This document shows, piece after piece, positions 4,101 through 21,135 of a DNA stretch of 26,673 bases. The position numbers and the translations under genes are program-made. Origin of the DNA: a phage; the NCBI GenBank assembly GCA_014436445.1, contig GCA_014436445.1_4089.1, one strand, 5' to 3'. The notes beneath the pieces are model-generated. The model worked only from the letters and a program-made list of their open reading frames with translations, searched no databases and had not been told where the DNA came from. How positions within the stretch are numbered: the first letter of the stretch is position 1; the number at the start of each line of letters is the position of its first letter.

Positions 4101-4321
4101 GATTTTATTCCTTATTGCCAGGGAGAACCGTTTCCCCCTCTCGATATAAAACATTATACTTGATTCTAAGTACAATGCAAGTACTTTTTATCAAATAGTT
4201 TTCAGTACTGAATACTTATATAATATATACATTTATGCACCCTGTGGGTCAGTGAGCTATCTCTCAATGAATATATAATAGCAAAGGGACTGACCGGAGT
4301 CAATCCCTTTTTTAATCTTTT

Positions 4322-6325: not shown

Positions 6326-6649
6326 TTACATGTCTTTCTTACGTTTTACATCGTAGTAACGAACTGTAATTTCTTTGTTGATCTCTTCCTCGATGCGGTG
6401 AATAACTTTTTCTTTCGGGTTGAAACCTATAACGGTTTCTTTAATGATCTCCAAGCCCGTGTATTCGCCTTGTGTACCGTAACCGTAAGTAAAGGTTTCA
6501 TGTCCCAGGTCTTCCCAGCGGTCACCAATCAATGCAGACACGTAGCATGAGTGGTAAGTATTGCCGTGGCTATCAGTCCACCGATTAACTTTAATGTCAA
6601 AGGAAGTTACAATTTTCATTTCTACTTTCTGGGTAAGGATCATAGTCAT
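6326..6649 (-). CDS. hypothetical protein (107 aa), paralog of 12703..13047
   Basis: Track ORF; shared motifs RW...GNTY.S, Y.YGYG and a C-terminal DVKRKKD(M/L); leader hairpin at 6671-6695. Confidence 0.6.
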   Translation of the reverse strand: MTMILTQKVEMKIVTSFDIKVNRWTDSHGNTYHSCYVSALIGDRWEDLGHETFTYGYGTQGEYTGLEIIKETVIGFNPKEKVIHRIEEEINKEITVRYYDVKRKKDM

Positions 6650-6736
6650 TTTAATTTCTCTCTTTTTGTTAGGAGGGGAACCATTCCCCTCACTTGATGT
6701 AAACTATTATACAGTACTAAGATACTTTGTCAATAC

Positions 6737-7281: not shown

Positions 7282-7462
7282 TAAAACATTATACTTGATT
7301 CTAAGTACAATGCAAGTACTTTTTAAAAATAGTTTTCAGTACTTGATAGTACTAGCCACCAGCATATAATAGATACATTTATGCACCCTGTGGGCTGATT
7401 TGTTTCTATGCGTATATAATAGCAAAGGGACTGACCGGAGTCAATCCCTTTTTTAAATCTTT

Positions 7463-7888: not shown

Positions 7889-8101
7889 TTAATCTTTCAG
7901 CCAATGATCTTGAATGAATTTTTCACAGAATCCCTGTTTCATAGATTCTAACAGGCGTTCACGGTGAGCGGCGGCATATTGCTCAGTACTATGCGTTACG
8001 CCAGGTTGATAACGTGAAACACCGTCTGGTCCGATATATTGAACATCCCACGGTTTTTCGTTAGTATCAGACCATTTACGAACGATTAGTTGACCTTGCA
8101 T
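7889..8101 (-). CDS. hypothetical small protein (70 aa), first gene of a four-gene micro-operon
   Basis: Track ORF; AAGAGGAAAG Shine-Dalgarno; leader hairpin GGGGAGAATCATTTCTCCCC and promoter at 8110-8180. Confidence 0.6.
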   Translation of the reverse strand: MQGQLIVRKWSDTNEKPWDVQYIGPDGVSRYQPGVTHSTEQYAAAHRERLLESMKQGFCEKFIQDHWLKD

Positions 8102-8186
8102 GTTTCTTTCCTCTTAGTGGGGAGAATCATTTCTCCCCTTCATGTAAACTATTATACAGTACTACGATGCTTTGTCAAATACTTTT

Positions 8187-8375
8187 TTAAAGTTTATGAA
8201 TCAATTCTTTATCTAAGCGATAGCGAACATTATTGATTGTAACTGCATTGTTTTTAATGCTACGCTGTACAGGTCCACCAGCAATAACAAACGTTGCCTT
8301 ATTGCCCCGAACGATGATAGCACTTCCAGGATTACCAAAATCATCTTGTACTAAAATACTTGATAAGTTTTGCAT
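8187..8375 (-). CDS. hypothetical small protein (62 aa)
   Basis: Track ORF; leader hairpin and promoter at 8390-8450. Confidence 0.55.
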   Translation of the reverse strand: MQNLSSILVQDDFGNPGSAIIVRGNKATFVIAGGPVQRSIKNNAVTINNVRYRLDKELIHKL

Positions 8376-8454
8376 TTGTCTTTCCTTGTAGTGGGGAGAA
8401 CTATTCTCCCCTTCATGTAAACTATTATACAGTACTTAAAACTAAATGCAAGTA

Positions 8455-8811
8455 CTAGGATAAAATCATTATAGGATATTCACAGTTAATCAGTACTTCA
8501 AAACCAAAACTTTCATACCATTCTTTAAGATTAAACTCGTTATCTTCTCCCGTATCGCATTCTAAGATGATACAATCTGAATCATCGGCGGCATCAATAA
8601 AGGCATTCATTAATTCAGTACCTTCACCGTTACCGCGATTATCGGGATCAACATAAAGAGAATCAATAAACGCTACACGATCATAATCAAGATCCGGTGC
8701 AACAATGCCACGTTTAACAAACCAGTACTGCAATTGTGCTACTTTGCCTTGTACTTGATAGCCAGTGATCTCACCATTGTCTGTAGTACGCGTGATATGT
8801 TGTATACCCAT
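8455..8811 (-). CDS. small protein with a GNAT acetyltransferase-like motif (118 aa)
   Basis: The segment LYVDPDNRGNGEGTELMNAF resembles GNAT motif A (the acetyl-CoA-binding R/Q-x-x-G-x-G/A loop), but the protein is shorter than a typical GNAT. GAGGA Shine-Dalgarno; TTGACA/TATAAT promoter at 8835-8870. Confidence 0.5.
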   Translation of the reverse strand: MGIQHITRTTDNGEITGYQVQGKVAQLQYWFVKRGIVAPDLDYDRVAFIDSLYVDPDNRGNGEGTELMNAFIDAADDSDCIILECDTGEDNEFNLKEWYESFGFEVLINCEYPIMILS

Positions 8812-8874
8812 GATTTCAATCCTCAGTTAAGATATAAAATATTATACACTAACTAACAGCACTGTCAATACTTT

Positions 8875-9132
8875 TTATCTCATAGATCTATGCCAACAAT
8901 TACGGGGATTGCGTTTGAATATGCTATCATGATCAGCCTGGCAAGTGATGCAGTACTTACACCCCTTAACGGCCAGGCGGCGATTCTCAGGGATTTTATC
9001 GCCGCAGTCGAGGCAATGTATCAGTGATTCTATTTGTGCGTTAATTTGCGTTCTAGCGTGGTTTACAGCGGCCTGAATCACTGCGTTAATCTCGTCTTGC
9101 TCGGCCCCGTCCTTCGCGAATCCAACAGCCAT
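8875..9132 (-). CDS. TraR/DksA-family C4 zinc-finger protein (85 aa)
   Basis: CLDCGDKIPENRRLAVKGCKYCITCQ matches the TraR/DksA C-x2-C-x17-C-x2-C zinc finger with the conserved IPE.RR core. GAGGT Shine-Dalgarno. Confidence 0.75.
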   Translation of the reverse strand: MAVGFAKDGAEQDEINAVIQAAVNHARTQINAQIESLIHCLDCGDKIPENRRLAVKGCKYCITCQADHDSIFKRNPRNCWHRSMR

Positions 9133-9295
9133 TATTTTAACCTCATTATAAAAATACTATAGTACTGTAATGCTACAATAATACTACTAGTACTGATTTT
9201 ATTCAAACCGTATGATACTACATATTCCCCAGCATTACCACGAATGGTAACGCCTTTGTACTTTCTATATAATTTCAACTACGTTTATTGCCTTT

Positions 9296-9366
9296 GATCA
9301 AGATTTGATCAGAATTATACGCCTTATGCTAAATTGATCCAGTACTTTTTTGATCATTTATTGATC
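9296..9366. repeat. cluster of five TTGATC(A) repeats (five GATC sites in 71 bp)
   Basis: GATC at 9296, 9307, 9336, 9352 and 9363, each within a TTGATC heptamer context; roughly 20-fold denser than expected at this base composition. Confidence 0.6.
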
Positions 9367-9461
9367 GATATTATATAGTTACATTTGTGCACCCTATGGG
9401 TTAGTGACGTTCTCGTCTTGATGTAAGTATTATGCTAGTACTGGCATAATTTGTCAATAGA

Positions 9462-9659
9462 TTATTTTAACTTTTTTCTGTCATTGATTAATGCTTTCAG
9501 TACTATACTAATGATTTGCAATGATTCATCAATGACTATAAAATTATTTTCTTTCATTAGATGATAGTTACCATTGATTGTATATTCTAAGGAGTACTGT
9601 TTACGTTTAATTTTTGATAATGTTTCTATTTGTTTTTGTACTGATTTCATGCTAATCAT
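9462..9659 (-). CDS. hypothetical small lysine-rich protein (65 aa), weakly supported
   Basis: Track ORF with no convincing Shine-Dalgarno or promoter; very AT-rich. Confidence 0.3.
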   Translation of the reverse strand: MISMKSVQKQIETLSKIKRKQYSLEYTINGNYHLMKENNFIVIDESLQIISIVLKALINDRKKLK

Positions 9660-9764
9660 TGTTAAACGTCCTGTAACGCATTCTAACGAGTTAAACGGTT
9701 TAGTACTGGCATTGTATAGGGTAAATGATTATAGCCCACCAGCGTTAACCAGTGGGCTATAATC

Positions 9765-9908
9765 TTACATCTTGCGGATAATCTTAACAGTATCTTTCAC
9801 CGATTTACCGTCTTGCTGGCATTGCTCGATCATCGCGTATTGTTCTGCGGTCAGATCCTCGCCAGTTTTTGCCAGTACTGCGTCGATGAATGAATCCAGT
9901 GCGATCAT
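9765..9908 (-). CDS. hypothetical small protein (47 aa; MIALDSFIDAVLAKTGEDLTAEQYAMIEQCQQDGKSVKDTVKIIRKM)
   Basis: Not in the track. Promoter TTGACA, 16 nt, TATAAT at about 9940-9985; stop followed by hairpin AGCCCAC...GTGGGCT at 9731-9758. Confidence 0.4.
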   Translation of the reverse strand: MIALDSFIDAVLAKTGEDLTAEQYAMIEQCQQDGKSVKDTVKIIRKM

Positions 9909-10007
9909 TTTATTTCTCTCTTAGGTTAAGTTAACTACTGTTGATAAAAGTTATTATACAGTACTATCAAACATTGTCAATAGATTTAATAGTACTGGTA
10001 ATATATT

Positions 10008-10187
10008 TTAGCGGTAATCGTCGTATGCTTTATTAACCTGGCGAATGTAACTTTCAAAGGCTTCGTCTACCGTTTCATACTCCCGAACATAATCACCATA
10101 GGAAACTACATACATCCCTTTTTGATCTTCAAACGTCATGATGATAGAATCCAGGCCGATGATTTCAGTTTTTGCGATAATAGCCAT
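10008..10187 (-). CDS. hypothetical small protein (59 aa)
   Basis: Track ORF 10008..10259 trimmed to the ATG at 10187 (AAGGAA Shine-Dalgarno); the extension would cover the promoter (TTGACA, 17 nt, CATAAT) and leader. Confidence 0.5.
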   Translation of the reverse strand: MAIIAKTEIIGLDSIIMTFEDQKGMYVVSYGDYVREYETVDEAFESYIRQVNKAYDDYR

Positions 10188-10278
10188 TTTAGTATTCCTT
10201 AAATTAATATGCGTTGTCTTGATAAAAGTTATTATGCCAGTACTATCAAACGTTGTCAATAGTACTGTGATAATATTT

Positions 10279-10491
10279 TTAGTTAATGATAGTCAGTGTA
10301 AAATTGTAATCCCCTGCCTGGTATAGTACTTTATCGCCGAACGTGCCAACACGTTTCATATTGCAATAGATACCCATAACATTTTTTACATCTTTGATAT
10401 TCCGAACGCCAGTGATATCCTTGTTGAAATTTTCATGATCAGAAAATAAAACTTGTTTTGCATTTTTCAGTACAGTGCGGATATTAGCCAT
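10279..10491 (-). CDS. hypothetical small protein (70 aa)
   Basis: Track ORF; leader hairpin GGGGAGAACTATTCTCCCC and TTGACA/TATAAT promoter at 10511-10575. Confidence 0.6.
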   Translation of the reverse strand: MANIRTVLKNAKQVLFSDHENFNKDITGVRNIKDVKNVMGIYCNMKRVGTFGDKVLYQAGDYNFTLTIIN

Positions 10492-10586
10492 TTTGTTTTC
10501 TCTCTCTGTTAGTGGGGAGAACTATTCTCCCCTTGATGTAAACTATTATACAGTACTAAAAACTATTGTCAAACTATTTTTTAATA

Positions 10587-10928
10587 TTATTCGAAATCTT
10601 CTGGACCGGACTGATAATCATCTTCACCGTATGCACTTTCTAACTTCTCGCCAGTATGATCATCAGTTAGTGAGTCATCCTCATAGTTCACGTCTACGCC
10701 CGTGATGTAAAACTGGCTATCGTCTGGATCATTGAAATTAATTTTCTGAATGTTTACAATAACTGTATTGATACCCAGGACACAGCCATCAGCCGTTACA
10801 AAGTACTGATATTTTTCACATCCACCACTATTGAAACCGTAATTGATTTCGGCCCGACCATCATTTAAACGCAGTGCCTGAGCGATGATTTCGTTTTCAA
10901 AGTTAGATTGAGCAATTGCAATAGTCAT
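10587..10928 (-). CDS. hypothetical protein with a strongly acidic C-terminal tail (113 aa)
   Basis: Track ORF; C-terminal ~40 residues are rich in D/E (YEDDSLTDDHTGEKLESAYGEDDYQSGPEDFE); leader hairpin and promoter at 10947-11010. Confidence 0.6.
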   Translation of the reverse strand: MTIAIAQSNFENEIIAQALRLNDGRAEINYGFNSGGCEKYQYFVTADGCVLGINTVIVNIQKINFNDPDDSQFYITGVDVNYEDDSLTDDHTGEKLESAYGEDDYQSGPEDFE

Positions 10929-11157
10929 GATTCGTTTCCTTATTACCAGGGGAAACCGTTTCCCCTTGCGATGTAAAACATTATACGCCTATTGAGATAG
11001 TATGCAAGTACTTTTTATCAAATACTTTAAAATAGTTTTCTGTACTCAATCATTATACAATAGATACACTCCTGCACCCTGTGGGCTAGTGAGCTATCTC
11101 TCAATGAATATATAATAGCAAAATGGCTGACCGAAGTCAACCACTTTTTCATTTATT

Positions 11158-15551: not shown

Positions 15552-15650
15552 ATAAAGACGAGATAGTCACTAACCCACAGGGTGCATAGATCCGTCTATT
15601 AAATGATTCAGTACAAAAAATATAAAGGGGATCAATTGATCCCCCTGGTT
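15552..15650 (+). ncRNA. candidate ~100-nt small RNA
   Basis: Predicted transcript from the 15517-15545 promoter, containing GAGATAGTCACTAACCCACAGGGTGCA and ending at the palindromic hairpin GGGGATCAATTGATCCCCC (15627-15645), which also terminates minus gene 15652..15873. Confidence 0.3.
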
Positions 15651-15651
15651 A

Positions 15652-15873
15652 TTACTTAGTAAGATATAAACAGAAGTCACCTTTATTTGCTACGCCGCCA
15701 GTGTAACGCGATGAATAGTTAGAAACGTCCTGGACTTCTGCTATTACCAGTGTATCATCATTCAATTCGTCGCAGAAGCAAACGGCTGGATCTTTTACGC
15801 CGATATTGTCGGCATGTTCCCGCATAGATTTAACCAGTGCTTCAAGTTGGGAAAGAGTAGTGATATTAGCCAT
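15652..15873 (-). CDS. hypothetical protein (73 aa)
   Basis: Track ORF 15652..15903 trimmed to the ATG at 15873 (GAGGAAAA Shine-Dalgarno) downstream of the leader hairpin at 15885-15906. Confidence 0.55.
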   Translation of the reverse strand: MANITTLSQLEALVKSMREHADNIGVKDPAVCFCDELNDDTLVIAEVQDVSNYSSRYTGGVANKGDFCLYLTK

Positions 15874-15958
15874 TTTATTTTCCTCATTACCAGGGAGAAC
15901 CATTTCCCCCTTGATGTAAACTATTATACAGTACTAAAAACTAATTGCAAGTACTTTT

Positions 15959-17597: not shown

Positions 17598-17752
17598 TAA
17601 AACATTATACGCCTTTAAACATAGTTGGCAAGTACTTTTTGAAAATAGTTTTTAGTACTTTCATATAGATACACTCCCGCACCCTATGGGCTATCGCCTA
17701 GTGTCCGGCTTGTAAGTATTATCTCACTAAGCCGGATAACTGTCAAGTACTT

Positions 17753-19144: not shown

Positions 19145-19332
19145 TACTACATAGACGCGAGAAAGCGGATACCCCTGGGGGTGCGGAATTACGCCCAAAA
19201 TTCAGTAAATTTAAAAAGGATACACTCCCGCACCTTAGCAGGTCATAGCACTTTCTCAGTACTGAATCATAGTACCATAGTACGCCCCAGGATGGCAAGC
19301 AAATTAATTAAAACTTTTTGCGTTTAGGGTAT

Positions 19333-19360: not shown

Positions 19361-19457
19361 ATTTTCATCAAGTCGAGAAAGACTCTAGCCCACCGGGTGC
19401 ATAATTGTATCTAAAATTCAGTACTAGATTATTTTTTAAAATTATTCATCCAGGCGG

Positions 19458-20628: not shown

Positions 20629-20743
20629 GGGTTTAGCCTGGGGAGAATCCTAGTGATCGCATTTGTCCAGGCTGAATTTTAACATATGCAACATATGTTA
20701 AAGCCTGTATAATGCTTCCACTACGGAGCTTCCCCTAGCTATA

Positions 20744-20944
20744 TTACTTCCTATATATAATCATTAAGATATAGTAGTACTGATTGTACTGTACATTCTC
20801 TTTAATATTATAAGGGTCTATAGCAATCTCGGTACATCTGTTAAATGCATATCTATTAAATGCCAGTGGAATTATAGATCTAATCCATACTTGTTCATTT
20901 TCTTTTAGTTTACTTATATAGAATTCTTTATGTTCTTTATTCAT
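20744..20944 (-). CDS. small-protein paralog array, member 15 (66 aa)
   Basis: Track ORF; N-terminus MNKEHKEFY, central Cys motif (NRCTEIAI), C-terminus YYILMIIYRK. Confidence 0.6.
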   Translation of the reverse strand: MNKEHKEFYISKLKENEQVWIRSIIPLAFNRYAFNRCTEIAIDPYNIKENVQYNQYYYILMIIYRK

Positions 20945-20949
20945 ATTAG

Positions 20950-21135
20950 TTAGTGTCTGTATATAAGTAATAGTAAGAATACGTACTGCACATCTTCATC
21001 TTTAGTATTGAGTACTGTACGTATTGCGTCATTAAACAAGAATATAGTACTTGGGTCATGAGAATTTAAAGGGGTTCTGGGTACGGCATGTTTGTAGTTC
21101 CCTTTAACAAATTGTGTGTAGTATTCTCTATGCAT
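20950..21135 (-). CDS. small-protein paralog array, member 14 (61 aa)
   Basis: Track ORF; MHREYYTQF...LLLLIYRH. Confidence 0.6.
   Translation of the reverse strand: MHREYYTQFVKGNYKHAVPRTPLNSHDPSTIFLFNDAIRTVLNTKDEDVQYVFLLLLIYRH

Follow-up and report, generated by a model that had tools for sequence, protein, structure and literature searches.

A unique GATC cluster over a predicted early promoter of an Asteriusvirus jumbo coliphage: a possible Dam/SeqA-sensitive switch

Why does a phage genome that is otherwise poor in GATC hold five copies of this tetranucleotide in 71 bp? The question is raised by positions 9296–9366 of a 26,673-nucleotide phage contig (GCA_014436445.1_4089.1, assembly GCA_014436445.1), the whole of which is called the window here. 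A preliminary description of this DNA had listed GATC at 9296, 9307, 9336, 9352 and 9363, each within TTGATC, and had likened the region to Dam-methylated, SeqA-regulated regions such as origins and phase-variable promoters. The sites are as listed. Their spacings are 11, 29, 16 and 11 bp, and all five read TTGATC on the plus strand and GATCAA on the transcribed minus strand. Three are TGATCA and the remaining two TGATCC and TGATCG, while positions 9294–9301 form a complete palindrome, TTGATCAA. GATC density within the cluster is 1 per 14 bp, and the stretch around it (9290–9380) is AT-rich, with 29% G+C. With a probability of roughly 0.35, we suggest that the cluster is a Dam/SeqA-sensitive early promoter.

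Megablast of positions 8000–11000 against phage records placed the window among the Asteriusvirus jumbo coliphages: Escherichia phage 121Q was 97.7% identical and about 60 others were 80–95% identical. The 329-bp gap that contains the cluster, compared alone, was 99.1% identical to 121Q, and the full genome of this nearest relative (348,532 bp) was used for the genome-wide GATC profile. In vB_Ec-M-J, the region homologous to the cluster locus sits within an annotated direct terminal repeat of 21,525 bp, and the terminal repeat of fEgEco12 (20,993 bp) is confirmed by restriction digests; annotated or reported, the terminal repeats of relatives measure 21.0–21.5 kb. Placed by offset from these relatives, window positions 1 to ~21,000 would correspond to the Asteriusvirus direct terminal repeat. 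Annotated genes in this part of the window are all small and all on the minus strand, and the sequence is made of recurring modules, namely a 28-copy promoter-containing repeat family and several leader-hairpin families; our own scan counted 41 near-consensus sigma-70 promoters on the minus strand. The terminal repeat is an early region transcribed by the host polymerase, and its layout is comparable to that of the T5 terminal repeat. GC skew changes sign at ~20700–21000, where gene strand is unchanged, and this coincides with the inferred repeat end, which is the physical genome end in relatives. Rfam at gathering threshold returned zero families over the whole window, and ARAGORN found neither tRNA nor tmRNA in it.

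Against the genomic background the cluster stands alone. The 121Q genome has 620 GATC sites where trinucleotide frequencies predict 1182 (ratio 0.52), and in 10-kb bins the ratio lies between 0.26 and 0.74 everywhere but at 140–150 kb, the terminal repeat, where it is 0.97. The 87 GATC sites of the window (26,673 bp) are likewise divided into 84 in the repeat part, against 97 expected, and 3 in the 5.7 kb past the repeat, against 12 expected. In the 348,532 bp of 121Q the cluster is the sole group of five sites in 71 bp, and it includes both of the 71-bp windows that hold four. The preliminary description had proposed GATC density elsewhere in the genome as a check, and that density is far lower, with no second cluster of this kind. 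When sites were placed uniformly, a group of five in 71 bp arose in 0.35% of trials genome-wide (121Q) and in 1.2% of trials at terminal-repeat density. The flanking bases are as unusual as the spacing: only ~11% of GATC strand-contexts genome-wide have a 5′ TT, so that TTGATC on one strand at five of five sites is far beyond chance, and nowhere else does the 121Q genome have at least three TTGATC/GATCAA in 80 bp. The repeated unit is TTGATC(A), rather than bare GATC. Around some 40 other sigma-70-like promoters of the repeat (–90 to +60) there are about 9 GATC sites in 6 kb. The cluster is therefore a real, statistically striking and previously undescribed feature.

GATC is near expectation throughout the terminal repeat (0.86–0.97) and falls abruptly just beyond its boundary, and the repeat of the related phage ph0011 behaves likewise. 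Avoidance of GATC by enterobacteriophages is known and still unexplained, and the contrast between a GATC-tolerant repeat and a depleted remainder bears on this unsolved problem (PMC5014478).

Where do the sites lie with respect to transcription signals? Read along the minus strand, the order is the stop codon of a 65-aa gene, a promoter that we call P1, a leader, an ATG-TAA start-stop, a TATAAT, a pair of GATCs, a second promoter (P2), another pair of GATCs, AAAGG and a short open reading frame (ORF). P1 (9429–9457) consists of TTGACA at 9457–9452, a 17-nt spacer that carries the CAGTACT motif of the promoter family, and CATAAT at 9434–9429, an 11/12 consensus match. It is one of the ~41 consensus-like sigma-70 promoters on the minus strand. 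The leader motif CCCATAGGGTGCA comes next, at 9388–9400 (roughly +23 to +35 as counted from the predicted P1 start), with a small hairpin (GACG-AGAA-CGTC) before it and the ATG-TAA (9384–9379) after it. Then come TATAAT at 9375–9370, GATC at 9366–9363 and 9355–9352, an A-run and GTAC. The preliminary description had placed the cluster downstream of the leader-bearing promoter, which is correct as far as it goes, but the cluster also overlaps the second, internal promoter. Predicted P2 (9314–9341, minus strand) has a –35 of TGGATC at 9341–9336, a 16-nt spacer and a –10 of TATAAT at 9319–9314, and beyond the –10 lie GATC at 9310–9307 and 9299–9296 and then AAAGG at 9295–9291.

The case for P2 comes from its paralogues. 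Elsewhere in the window, copies of the CCCAYAGGGTGCA leader have a second promoter, 'AAAAAGTACTTGCAT-N16-TATAAT', 70–80 nt downstream, and the 'AAAAAAGTACTGGATC-N16-TATAAT' at P2 matches this standard module position by position; on the strength of that alignment, TGGATC...TATAAT is taken to be the module's second promoter. P2 is thus predicted to belong to the sigma-70 early promoter family of the repeat, by its 16-nt spacing, module homology and the gene downstream. The consensus scan omitted it because its –35 matches at 3/6 positions in this window; in the PBECO4 group the same hexamer reads TTGATC. Relative to P2, the five GATCs fall at about –57 and about –46 (the UP region), within the –35 hexamer, at –3 to +1 (the start) and at +9 to +12. 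Compared with the standard module, they substitute for letters of its UP, –35 and initially transcribed parts or are inserted there. A 27-nt direct repeat (family D1, 74% identity, copies 56 bp apart) links the two outer pairs: copy A (9349–9375), which reads TATAAT-N3-GATCAA-N4-TGATCAAA on the minus strand, holds the GATCs at 9363 and 9352, and copy B (9293–9319) holds the P2 –10 together with those at 9307 and 9296.

Other ways of reading the same letters were tried and set aside. A plus-strand promoter with TTGATC as its –35 has one candidate, TTGATC-18-TATAGT at 9350–9379, which is weak (9/12) and not conserved in position in the PBECO4 type. By eye, the FNR consensus (TTGAT-N4-ATCAA) and the IHF and Fur consensus sequences did not fit, the TTGAT words being direct and not inverted repeats.

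Comparison among relatives separates a fixed core from a changing periphery. An alignment of the window with 16 phage records and 2 metagenome contigs, 19 sequences in all, covers three haplotypes. P1 and the leader are nearly invariant across the alignment, with the P1 core fully so, and GTATAATTCT at P2 is unchanged in 19 of 19. The three upstream GATCs, the one in the –35 included, are also kept in all 19. Between the first TATAAT and the P2 –10, the 121Q and PBECO4 types differ at 16 of 69 nt (~23%), none of these in the three core GATCs, and the A-run that lies between sites 2 and 3 has 4 to 7 nt, depending on the sequence. Outside the core, the two downstream sites, separated by 11 bp, occur in the 121Q type, to which copy B of the 27-nt repeat is confined; the PBECO4 type is without them and instead carries one more GATC, upstream of the –35 GATC at a distance of 11 bp, which gives it four sites with spacings of 11, 5 and 11 bp. 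The two metagenomic contigs represent a recombinant haplotype with only the core three. The extra sites arose separately in the two lineages, in every case at 11 bp from a partner site. Among the nine sites of the two main haplotypes, seven read TGATCAA, and the pairs form imperfect 11-bp tandem repeats (CGATCAATAAA/TGATCAAAAAA and TGATCAAATCT/TGATCAAAGGC, and TGATCAATACT/TGATCAATTTG in PBECO4). Since the 11-bp pairs are tandem repeats and the 27-nt repeat joins the outer pairs, the array would have grown by local duplication, repeatedly and in phase. More diverged copies were scarce: a search of IMG/VR returned 121Q itself only, and a metagenome scan gave the two genuine contigs plus 31 chance 17-mer matches.

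We read this pattern, that is, a conserved core, independent in-phase additions, placement on each working element of a promoter and uniqueness in a GATC-poor genome, as a protein-binding or methylation-sensing array that would control P2 and perhaps read-through from P1. E. coli carries Dam and SeqA, and GATC within core promoter elements is a recognised route to methylation-dependent transcription. The preliminary description had made its proposal depend on whether the host encodes Dam; the hosts of these phages are E. coli strains, K-12 MG1655 among them, which are Dam+ by established knowledge, so that neither of the two refuting conditions named there (similar GATC density elsewhere, a host without Dam) applies. 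The host Dam/SeqA pair would be the most economical reader of the array. In support of it, the phage also has a methyltransferase gene of its own, 121Q gp417, which matches the phage-Dam family (PF05869, E = 7e-32). In vivo, SeqA has a preference for GATC neighbours at a distance of ~10 or 20 bp, and below 50 bp (PMC2912659), which the 11-bp pairs fit; the array has the arrangement of a SeqA-type cluster, with at least two GATCs in ~31–50 bp at one or two helical turns. For a region of Dam/SeqA type, the spacing, the contrast with background and the overlap with a promoter are as expected, whereas the origin and phase-variation parts of the earlier suggestion find no support, for the reasons given further on.

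How might such a promoter work? P2 would drive a two-gene unit, which encodes a 48-aa ORFan and a DksA/TraR-like RNA-polymerase-binding protein, and the array would make P2 responsive to the adenine-methylation state of the DNA and hence to its replication state. On incoming or fully methylated DNA, P2 would be transcribed. Replication would then produce hemimethylated GATC pairs one helical turn apart, to which host SeqA would bind, occluding P2 and possibly blocking read-through from P1 as well. Alternatively or in addition, methylated adenines (N6-methyladenine) of the –35 hexamer and start site could alter RNA polymerase binding directly. The net effect would be expression of the two-gene unit during one window of infection only. 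We infer methylation, SeqA binding and the effect on transcription at the cluster alike. A bolder version, in which the phage has cleared most of its genome of GATC yet keeps, and in two lineages has independently enlarged, one phased array as a replication-coupled epigenetic switch that times an early gene without a repressor, is speculative and in our view doubtful.

Several observations weigh against a Dam/SeqA-sensitive P2. The –35 of P2 in the window agrees with consensus at just 3 of 6 positions, which makes the activity of P2 itself a prediction. The phage methyltransferase, gp417, is placed in the Dam family by its Pfam match and not by target specificity. The outermost, last site has been lost in phage Turkey5 (GATC to GTTC). 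Relatives of the phAPEC6 type are without the whole 330-bp cassette on which P1, P2 and the array lie, so its function must be dispensable, and their terminal repeat has no comparable GATC cluster. TTGATC(A) is common to all the sites, yet Dam and SeqA do not require it; the common context suggests either that the sites were duplicated or that their reader recognises a longer motif, and because Dam and SeqA leave the shared TGATCAA word unexplained, explanations by a heptamer-binding protein and by neutral duplication both stay alive. Duplication alone could in fact yield both pattern and phasing, given that the 11-bp pairs look tandem and the outer pairs lie in the 27-nt repeat. The conservation of the three core sites could be ordinary promoter constraint, the chance of no change being ~0.02–0.04 at local divergence. 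Finally, a literature search returned no methylation, SeqA-binding or transcript results for these phages.

If the array is read through methylation, it is a compact, repressor-free timer of an early gene in a little-studied group of jumbo phages, and a case of a host replication-sequestration protein put to use by a lytic phage. The relatives form a natural resource for such work: cassette-plus and cassette-minus phages, alleles with three, four and five sites, and a single cluster per genome make a clean experimental handle. Restriction sites add to this. A ClaI site (ATCGAT, 9364–9369) overlaps the GATC at 9363 and BclI sites (TGATCA) lie at 9295–9300, 9306–9311 and 9351–9356, so that Dam-sensitive enzymes cover four of the five GATCs and give an easy wet-lab readout of methylation. 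DNA of fEgEco12 was reported to be cut 'as predicted' by ClaI and NruI, at a whole-genome gel resolution that is too coarse for the cluster (PMC13070987).

The best-surviving alternative assigns the cluster no dedicated function. The sites would be a by-product of small tandem duplications, in 11-bp and 27-nt units, within a fast-evolving and recombining cassette: one ancestral promoter segment happened to hold TGATCAA, and copying multiplied the GATC. We consider this unlikely, but it accounts for much. It explains why each pair is an imperfect 11-bp tandem repeat and why a 27-nt direct repeat joins the outer pairs. Paralogous promoters read TTTGATAAAAAGTAC where the P2 module reads ATGATCAAAAAAGTAC, so a single base suffices to create a GATC site, and selection against GATC would be weak in the terminal repeat, given that the observed number there is close to the expected one (84 vs 97). 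The cassette is dispensable, and Turkey5 has already lost a site. What neutral copying explains less well is that, among ~40 similar promoters of the region, the P2 array alone grew by such duplications, three times in 70 bp and in two lineages; that the three core sites are unchanged in 19 sequences though adjoining bases and the A-run vary; and that even the local density makes such a cluster improbable (P ~0.012). If the array is merely such a by-product, the finding is an ordinary one.

A protein other than SeqA might read the array. Under this explanation, which we hold to be somewhat less probable again, the sites form an operator over P2, in which a sequence-specific protein of phage or host would recognise helically phased copies of TGATCAA. 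Methylation might alter its binding, as it does that of the phage P1 pacase to TGATCA/G hexamers, or might play no part. The direct repeats here have an 11-bp period, which is typical of regulators that bind in tandem. The TTGATC on one strand at all five sites and the TGATCAA at seven of nine fit a longer recognition word, two lineages gained new copies in phase, and the cassette's own tiny ORF could in principle encode an autoregulator. However, no candidate binder emerged: the 48-aa product has no Pfam match, no homologues outside the clade and a low-confidence helix model. Consensus scans for OxyR, Lrp and DnaA gave chance-level results. The OxyR and Lrp scans, with just 3-mismatch matches in the cluster and totals at shuffle expectation, also lend no support to a phase-variable promoter, here of the pap/agn43 type, a class of region that the preliminary description had named. 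Furthermore, the distance from site 2 to the –35 site shifts by 3 bp among relatives, which is ill-suited to a rigid multi-site complex, and a dedicated regulator would have a single target, as the motif clusters nowhere else in the genome.

An action at the RNA level is improbable. It would require UGAUCA hairpins in the P1 read-through transcript and a 5′ stem-loop (GAUCAA-AUC-UUGAUC) on the P2 mRNA that would stabilise this mRNA or control translation of the 48-codon ORF. The TGATCA pairs 11 nt apart are inverted as well as direct repeats, the predicted fold contains both hairpins, and other early mRNAs of the region open with a stable stem-loop (families D2, D4, D6 and D8). The fold from the P1 leader through the cluster is nevertheless not clearly better than that of shuffled sequences (z = –1.9), and six relatives, folded to a consensus, show no compensatory changes in the GATC hairpins; on these two grounds we dropped the RNA explanation. 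In addition, the downstream hairpin is missing in the PBECO4 type and disrupted in Turkey5, and Rfam yields nothing.

The idea of a replication origin, or a DNA-unwinding element of the oriC or phage P1 oriR type that is melted and then sequestered by SeqA, fares worse still, and we think it very improbable. In its favour, the GATC density exceeds that of oriC, the stretch is AT-rich, and a strong promoter reads in, as at T4-type R-loop origins, in a phage whose relative 121Q has T4-like replication genes. The DnaA box TTWTNCACA, however, has only five matches in the window (chance level), none of them between 7927 and 10812, which leaves kilobases on either side of the gap without a box; repeats are limited to the heptamers and the 27-mer, with no iterons, and no initiator gene lies nearby. 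The cumulative GC skew of the window turns at ~20.7–21 kb, at the repeat boundary, and not at 9.3 kb. The segment is missing from closely related phages that replicate normally, and its sites coincide neatly with a promoter instead. The weakest proposal is a packaging or nuclease site like phage P1 pac, where clusters of TGATCA/G hexamers border a cut that methylation controls; it can draw on the three TGATCA, one TGATCC and one TGATCG, which resemble the phage P1 hexamer, but we give it hardly any credence since the cluster lies ~11–12 kb inside the ~21-kb repeat whose boundaries are the physical genome ends, and the site is missing from related phages of the same genome architecture.

A regulatory device of a known kind is the most probable identity of the feature, which is carried on a dispensable cassette. 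By working principle, its nearest counterparts would appear to be SeqA-sequestered clusters (oriC, the dnaA promoter) together with Dam-controlled promoters (Mu mom, IS10, phage P1 cre); by evolutionary origin, they would be the promoter cassettes that shuffle in T4-type phages. With the oriC and dnaA clusters it shares several GATCs in tens of bp, neighbours about one helical turn apart, overlap with a sigma-70 promoter, a Dam+ SeqA+ host and a density at least that of oriC. Unlike them, it lies in the early region of a lytic jumbo phage, on a single dispensable cassette, its sites share the TTGATC(A) word, and it is known from sequence alone. Mu mom has three upstream GATCs and OxyR, IS10 pIN and IS50 have GATC in core promoter elements, and phage P1 cre is controlled by Dam. 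As in these four, GATC here lies within or just upstream of the core promoter elements of a gene of a phage or mobile element. There are five sites here, in contrast to one to three, and they cover the UP region, the –35, the start and +9; no OxyR-like site of the Mu mom kind was detected, and the products are a DksA/TraR-like factor and an ORFan peptide.

At lambda promoters, SeqA stimulates transcription via nearby GATC sites. Here too, an early promoter of a phage would be controlled by a host methylation reader that acts as transcription factor through a few GATCs, although the sites are not confined to upstream DNA but overlap the promoter. Phage P1 pac has clusters of TGATCA/G hexamers at which cleavage is governed by adenine methylation, and it resembles the present cluster in that one hexamer word is repeated within a short stretch of a coliphage genome; the present cluster differs in that it is not at a genome end, has no terminase context and is missing from sister phages. 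Like the promoter-early stem-loop (PeSL) cassettes of T4-type phages, the cassette carries a promoter on a short segment that some close relatives have and others lack, in a region of dozens of promoter modules. Its borders differ, being an 11-bp direct repeat at a translational coupling site and not stem-loops: an indel segment bounded by repeats was found, as in PeSL, but no stem-loop or terminator at the border, and a search of 8500–10200 for terminator-like sites found none.

The extent of the cassette follows from comparison with ph0011, a phage of the phAPEC6 type. There, a 97% identical homologue of the 65-aa gene (9462–9659, minus strand; homologue of 121Q gp292, by annotation and comparison with phAPEC6-type phages) ends ...GGTTAAAATAATGG and is TAATG-coupled straight to the DksA-like gene. 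The window has 330 bp of promoter and ORF between the two, with a copy of the 11-bp direct repeat GTTAAAATAAT at either border on the minus strand (left copy 9461–9471; right copy 9131–9141, which contains the gp293 stop and the DksA-like start at the TAATG coupling junction). Because ph0011 goes without all 330 bp between the repeats, P1, leader, GATC array, P2 and ORF form one insertion/deletion unit. Over 30 kb of its terminal-repeat region, ph0011 has GATC near the expected number, with no four- or five-site cluster and a single three-site group, which is intragenic. Searched with blastn, E. coli genomes and plasmids gave zero matches to the cassette, which argues that it is not host-derived.

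The preliminary description had called 9133–9461 a non-coding gap. Only 9279–9461 is intergenic; the rest is occupied by a 48-codon ORF (9132–9278, minus strand; PHROG 38664), annotated as gp293 in 121Q and also in several relatives, that shows a coding-type substitution pattern. It starts with TTG here and with GTG in the PBECO4 group, 12 nt downstream of the conserved AAAGG, and its stop overlaps the start of the DksA-like gene (TAATG, with TAA as stop and ATG as start). In all 11 of the 11 sequences compared, the frame stays open without any indel, the other frames being full of stops, and differences between the two main clades number 10, 7 and 20 at codon positions 1, 2 and 3. By these signs the ORF is probably real. 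Its protein has zero Pfam matches and homologues in one cluster among 5.8 billion proteins, none outside these phages, and the AF2 model, of low confidence (pLDDT 66), has a short hairpin and a long helix. A ribbon-helix-helix fold, suggested by the C-terminal 'SSIIVALQYY', found no support. The palindrome TTACCACGAATGGTAA that had been noted in the gap exists (9238–9253) but lies inside this ORF and is not conserved: a synonymous change of ACC to ACT breaks it in close relatives and the PBECO4 group is without it, which marks it as a chance feature.

Downstream of the ORF, the DksA/TraR-type C4 zinc-finger gene (8875–9132, minus strand; 85 aa; 121Q gp294) matches PF01258 at E = 2e-11 and, in NCBIfam, PRK11019 and the TraR family. 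A promoter-like TTGAAT-17-TATTAT with the CAGTACT spacer motif lies at 9178–9206 (minus strand), inside the 48-codon ORF, and the 60 nt upstream of the DksA-like start are invariant, which together suggests that this gene has a promoter of its own too.

The leader motif recurs in the window. There are eight copies of CCCAYAGGGTGC(A), six on the minus strand (1982–1994, 4236–4248, 7382–7394, 9388–9400, 11073–11085 and 17678–17690) and two on the plus strand (15574–15586 and 19389–19401), each ~21–28 nt past the –10 of a sigma-70 promoter, with differing promoter sequence families. In six of the eight, a small hairpin precedes the motif, and its stem varies while pairing is kept (GAG/CTC, GACG/CGTC, GAC/GTC, GTC/GAC, GCC/GGC). 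The motif is usually followed by GTATCTAT and then by the second promoter, and it has no Rfam match; it could be a nut/put-like or a processing signal. Some copies converge on opposite strands ~45 nt apart (ph0011 ~6470–6660; window 19210–19237 vs 19389–19401), in which case the transcripts of both promoters would overlap and the two motifs make a long inverted repeat. A near-identical copy of P1 (15500–15545) and leader (15574–15586) on the plus strand runs antisense to general transcription. It is followed by three GATCs, two of them within a perfect 18-bp palindrome, GGGGATCAATTGATCCCC (15625–15642), which on the minus strand precedes a T-run and looks like the terminator of the gene at 15652–15903; this is the next-densest intergenic GATC group of the genome.

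Other short words are also unevenly represented. GCGC is wholly absent both from the window, where ~40 would be expected, and from the 348.5 kb of 121Q, where the expectation is 153; CCGG is depleted (ratio 0.56) and GTAC is over-represented (ratio 1.42). The phage encodes a C5-cytosine methyltransferase (121Q gp91, PF00145).

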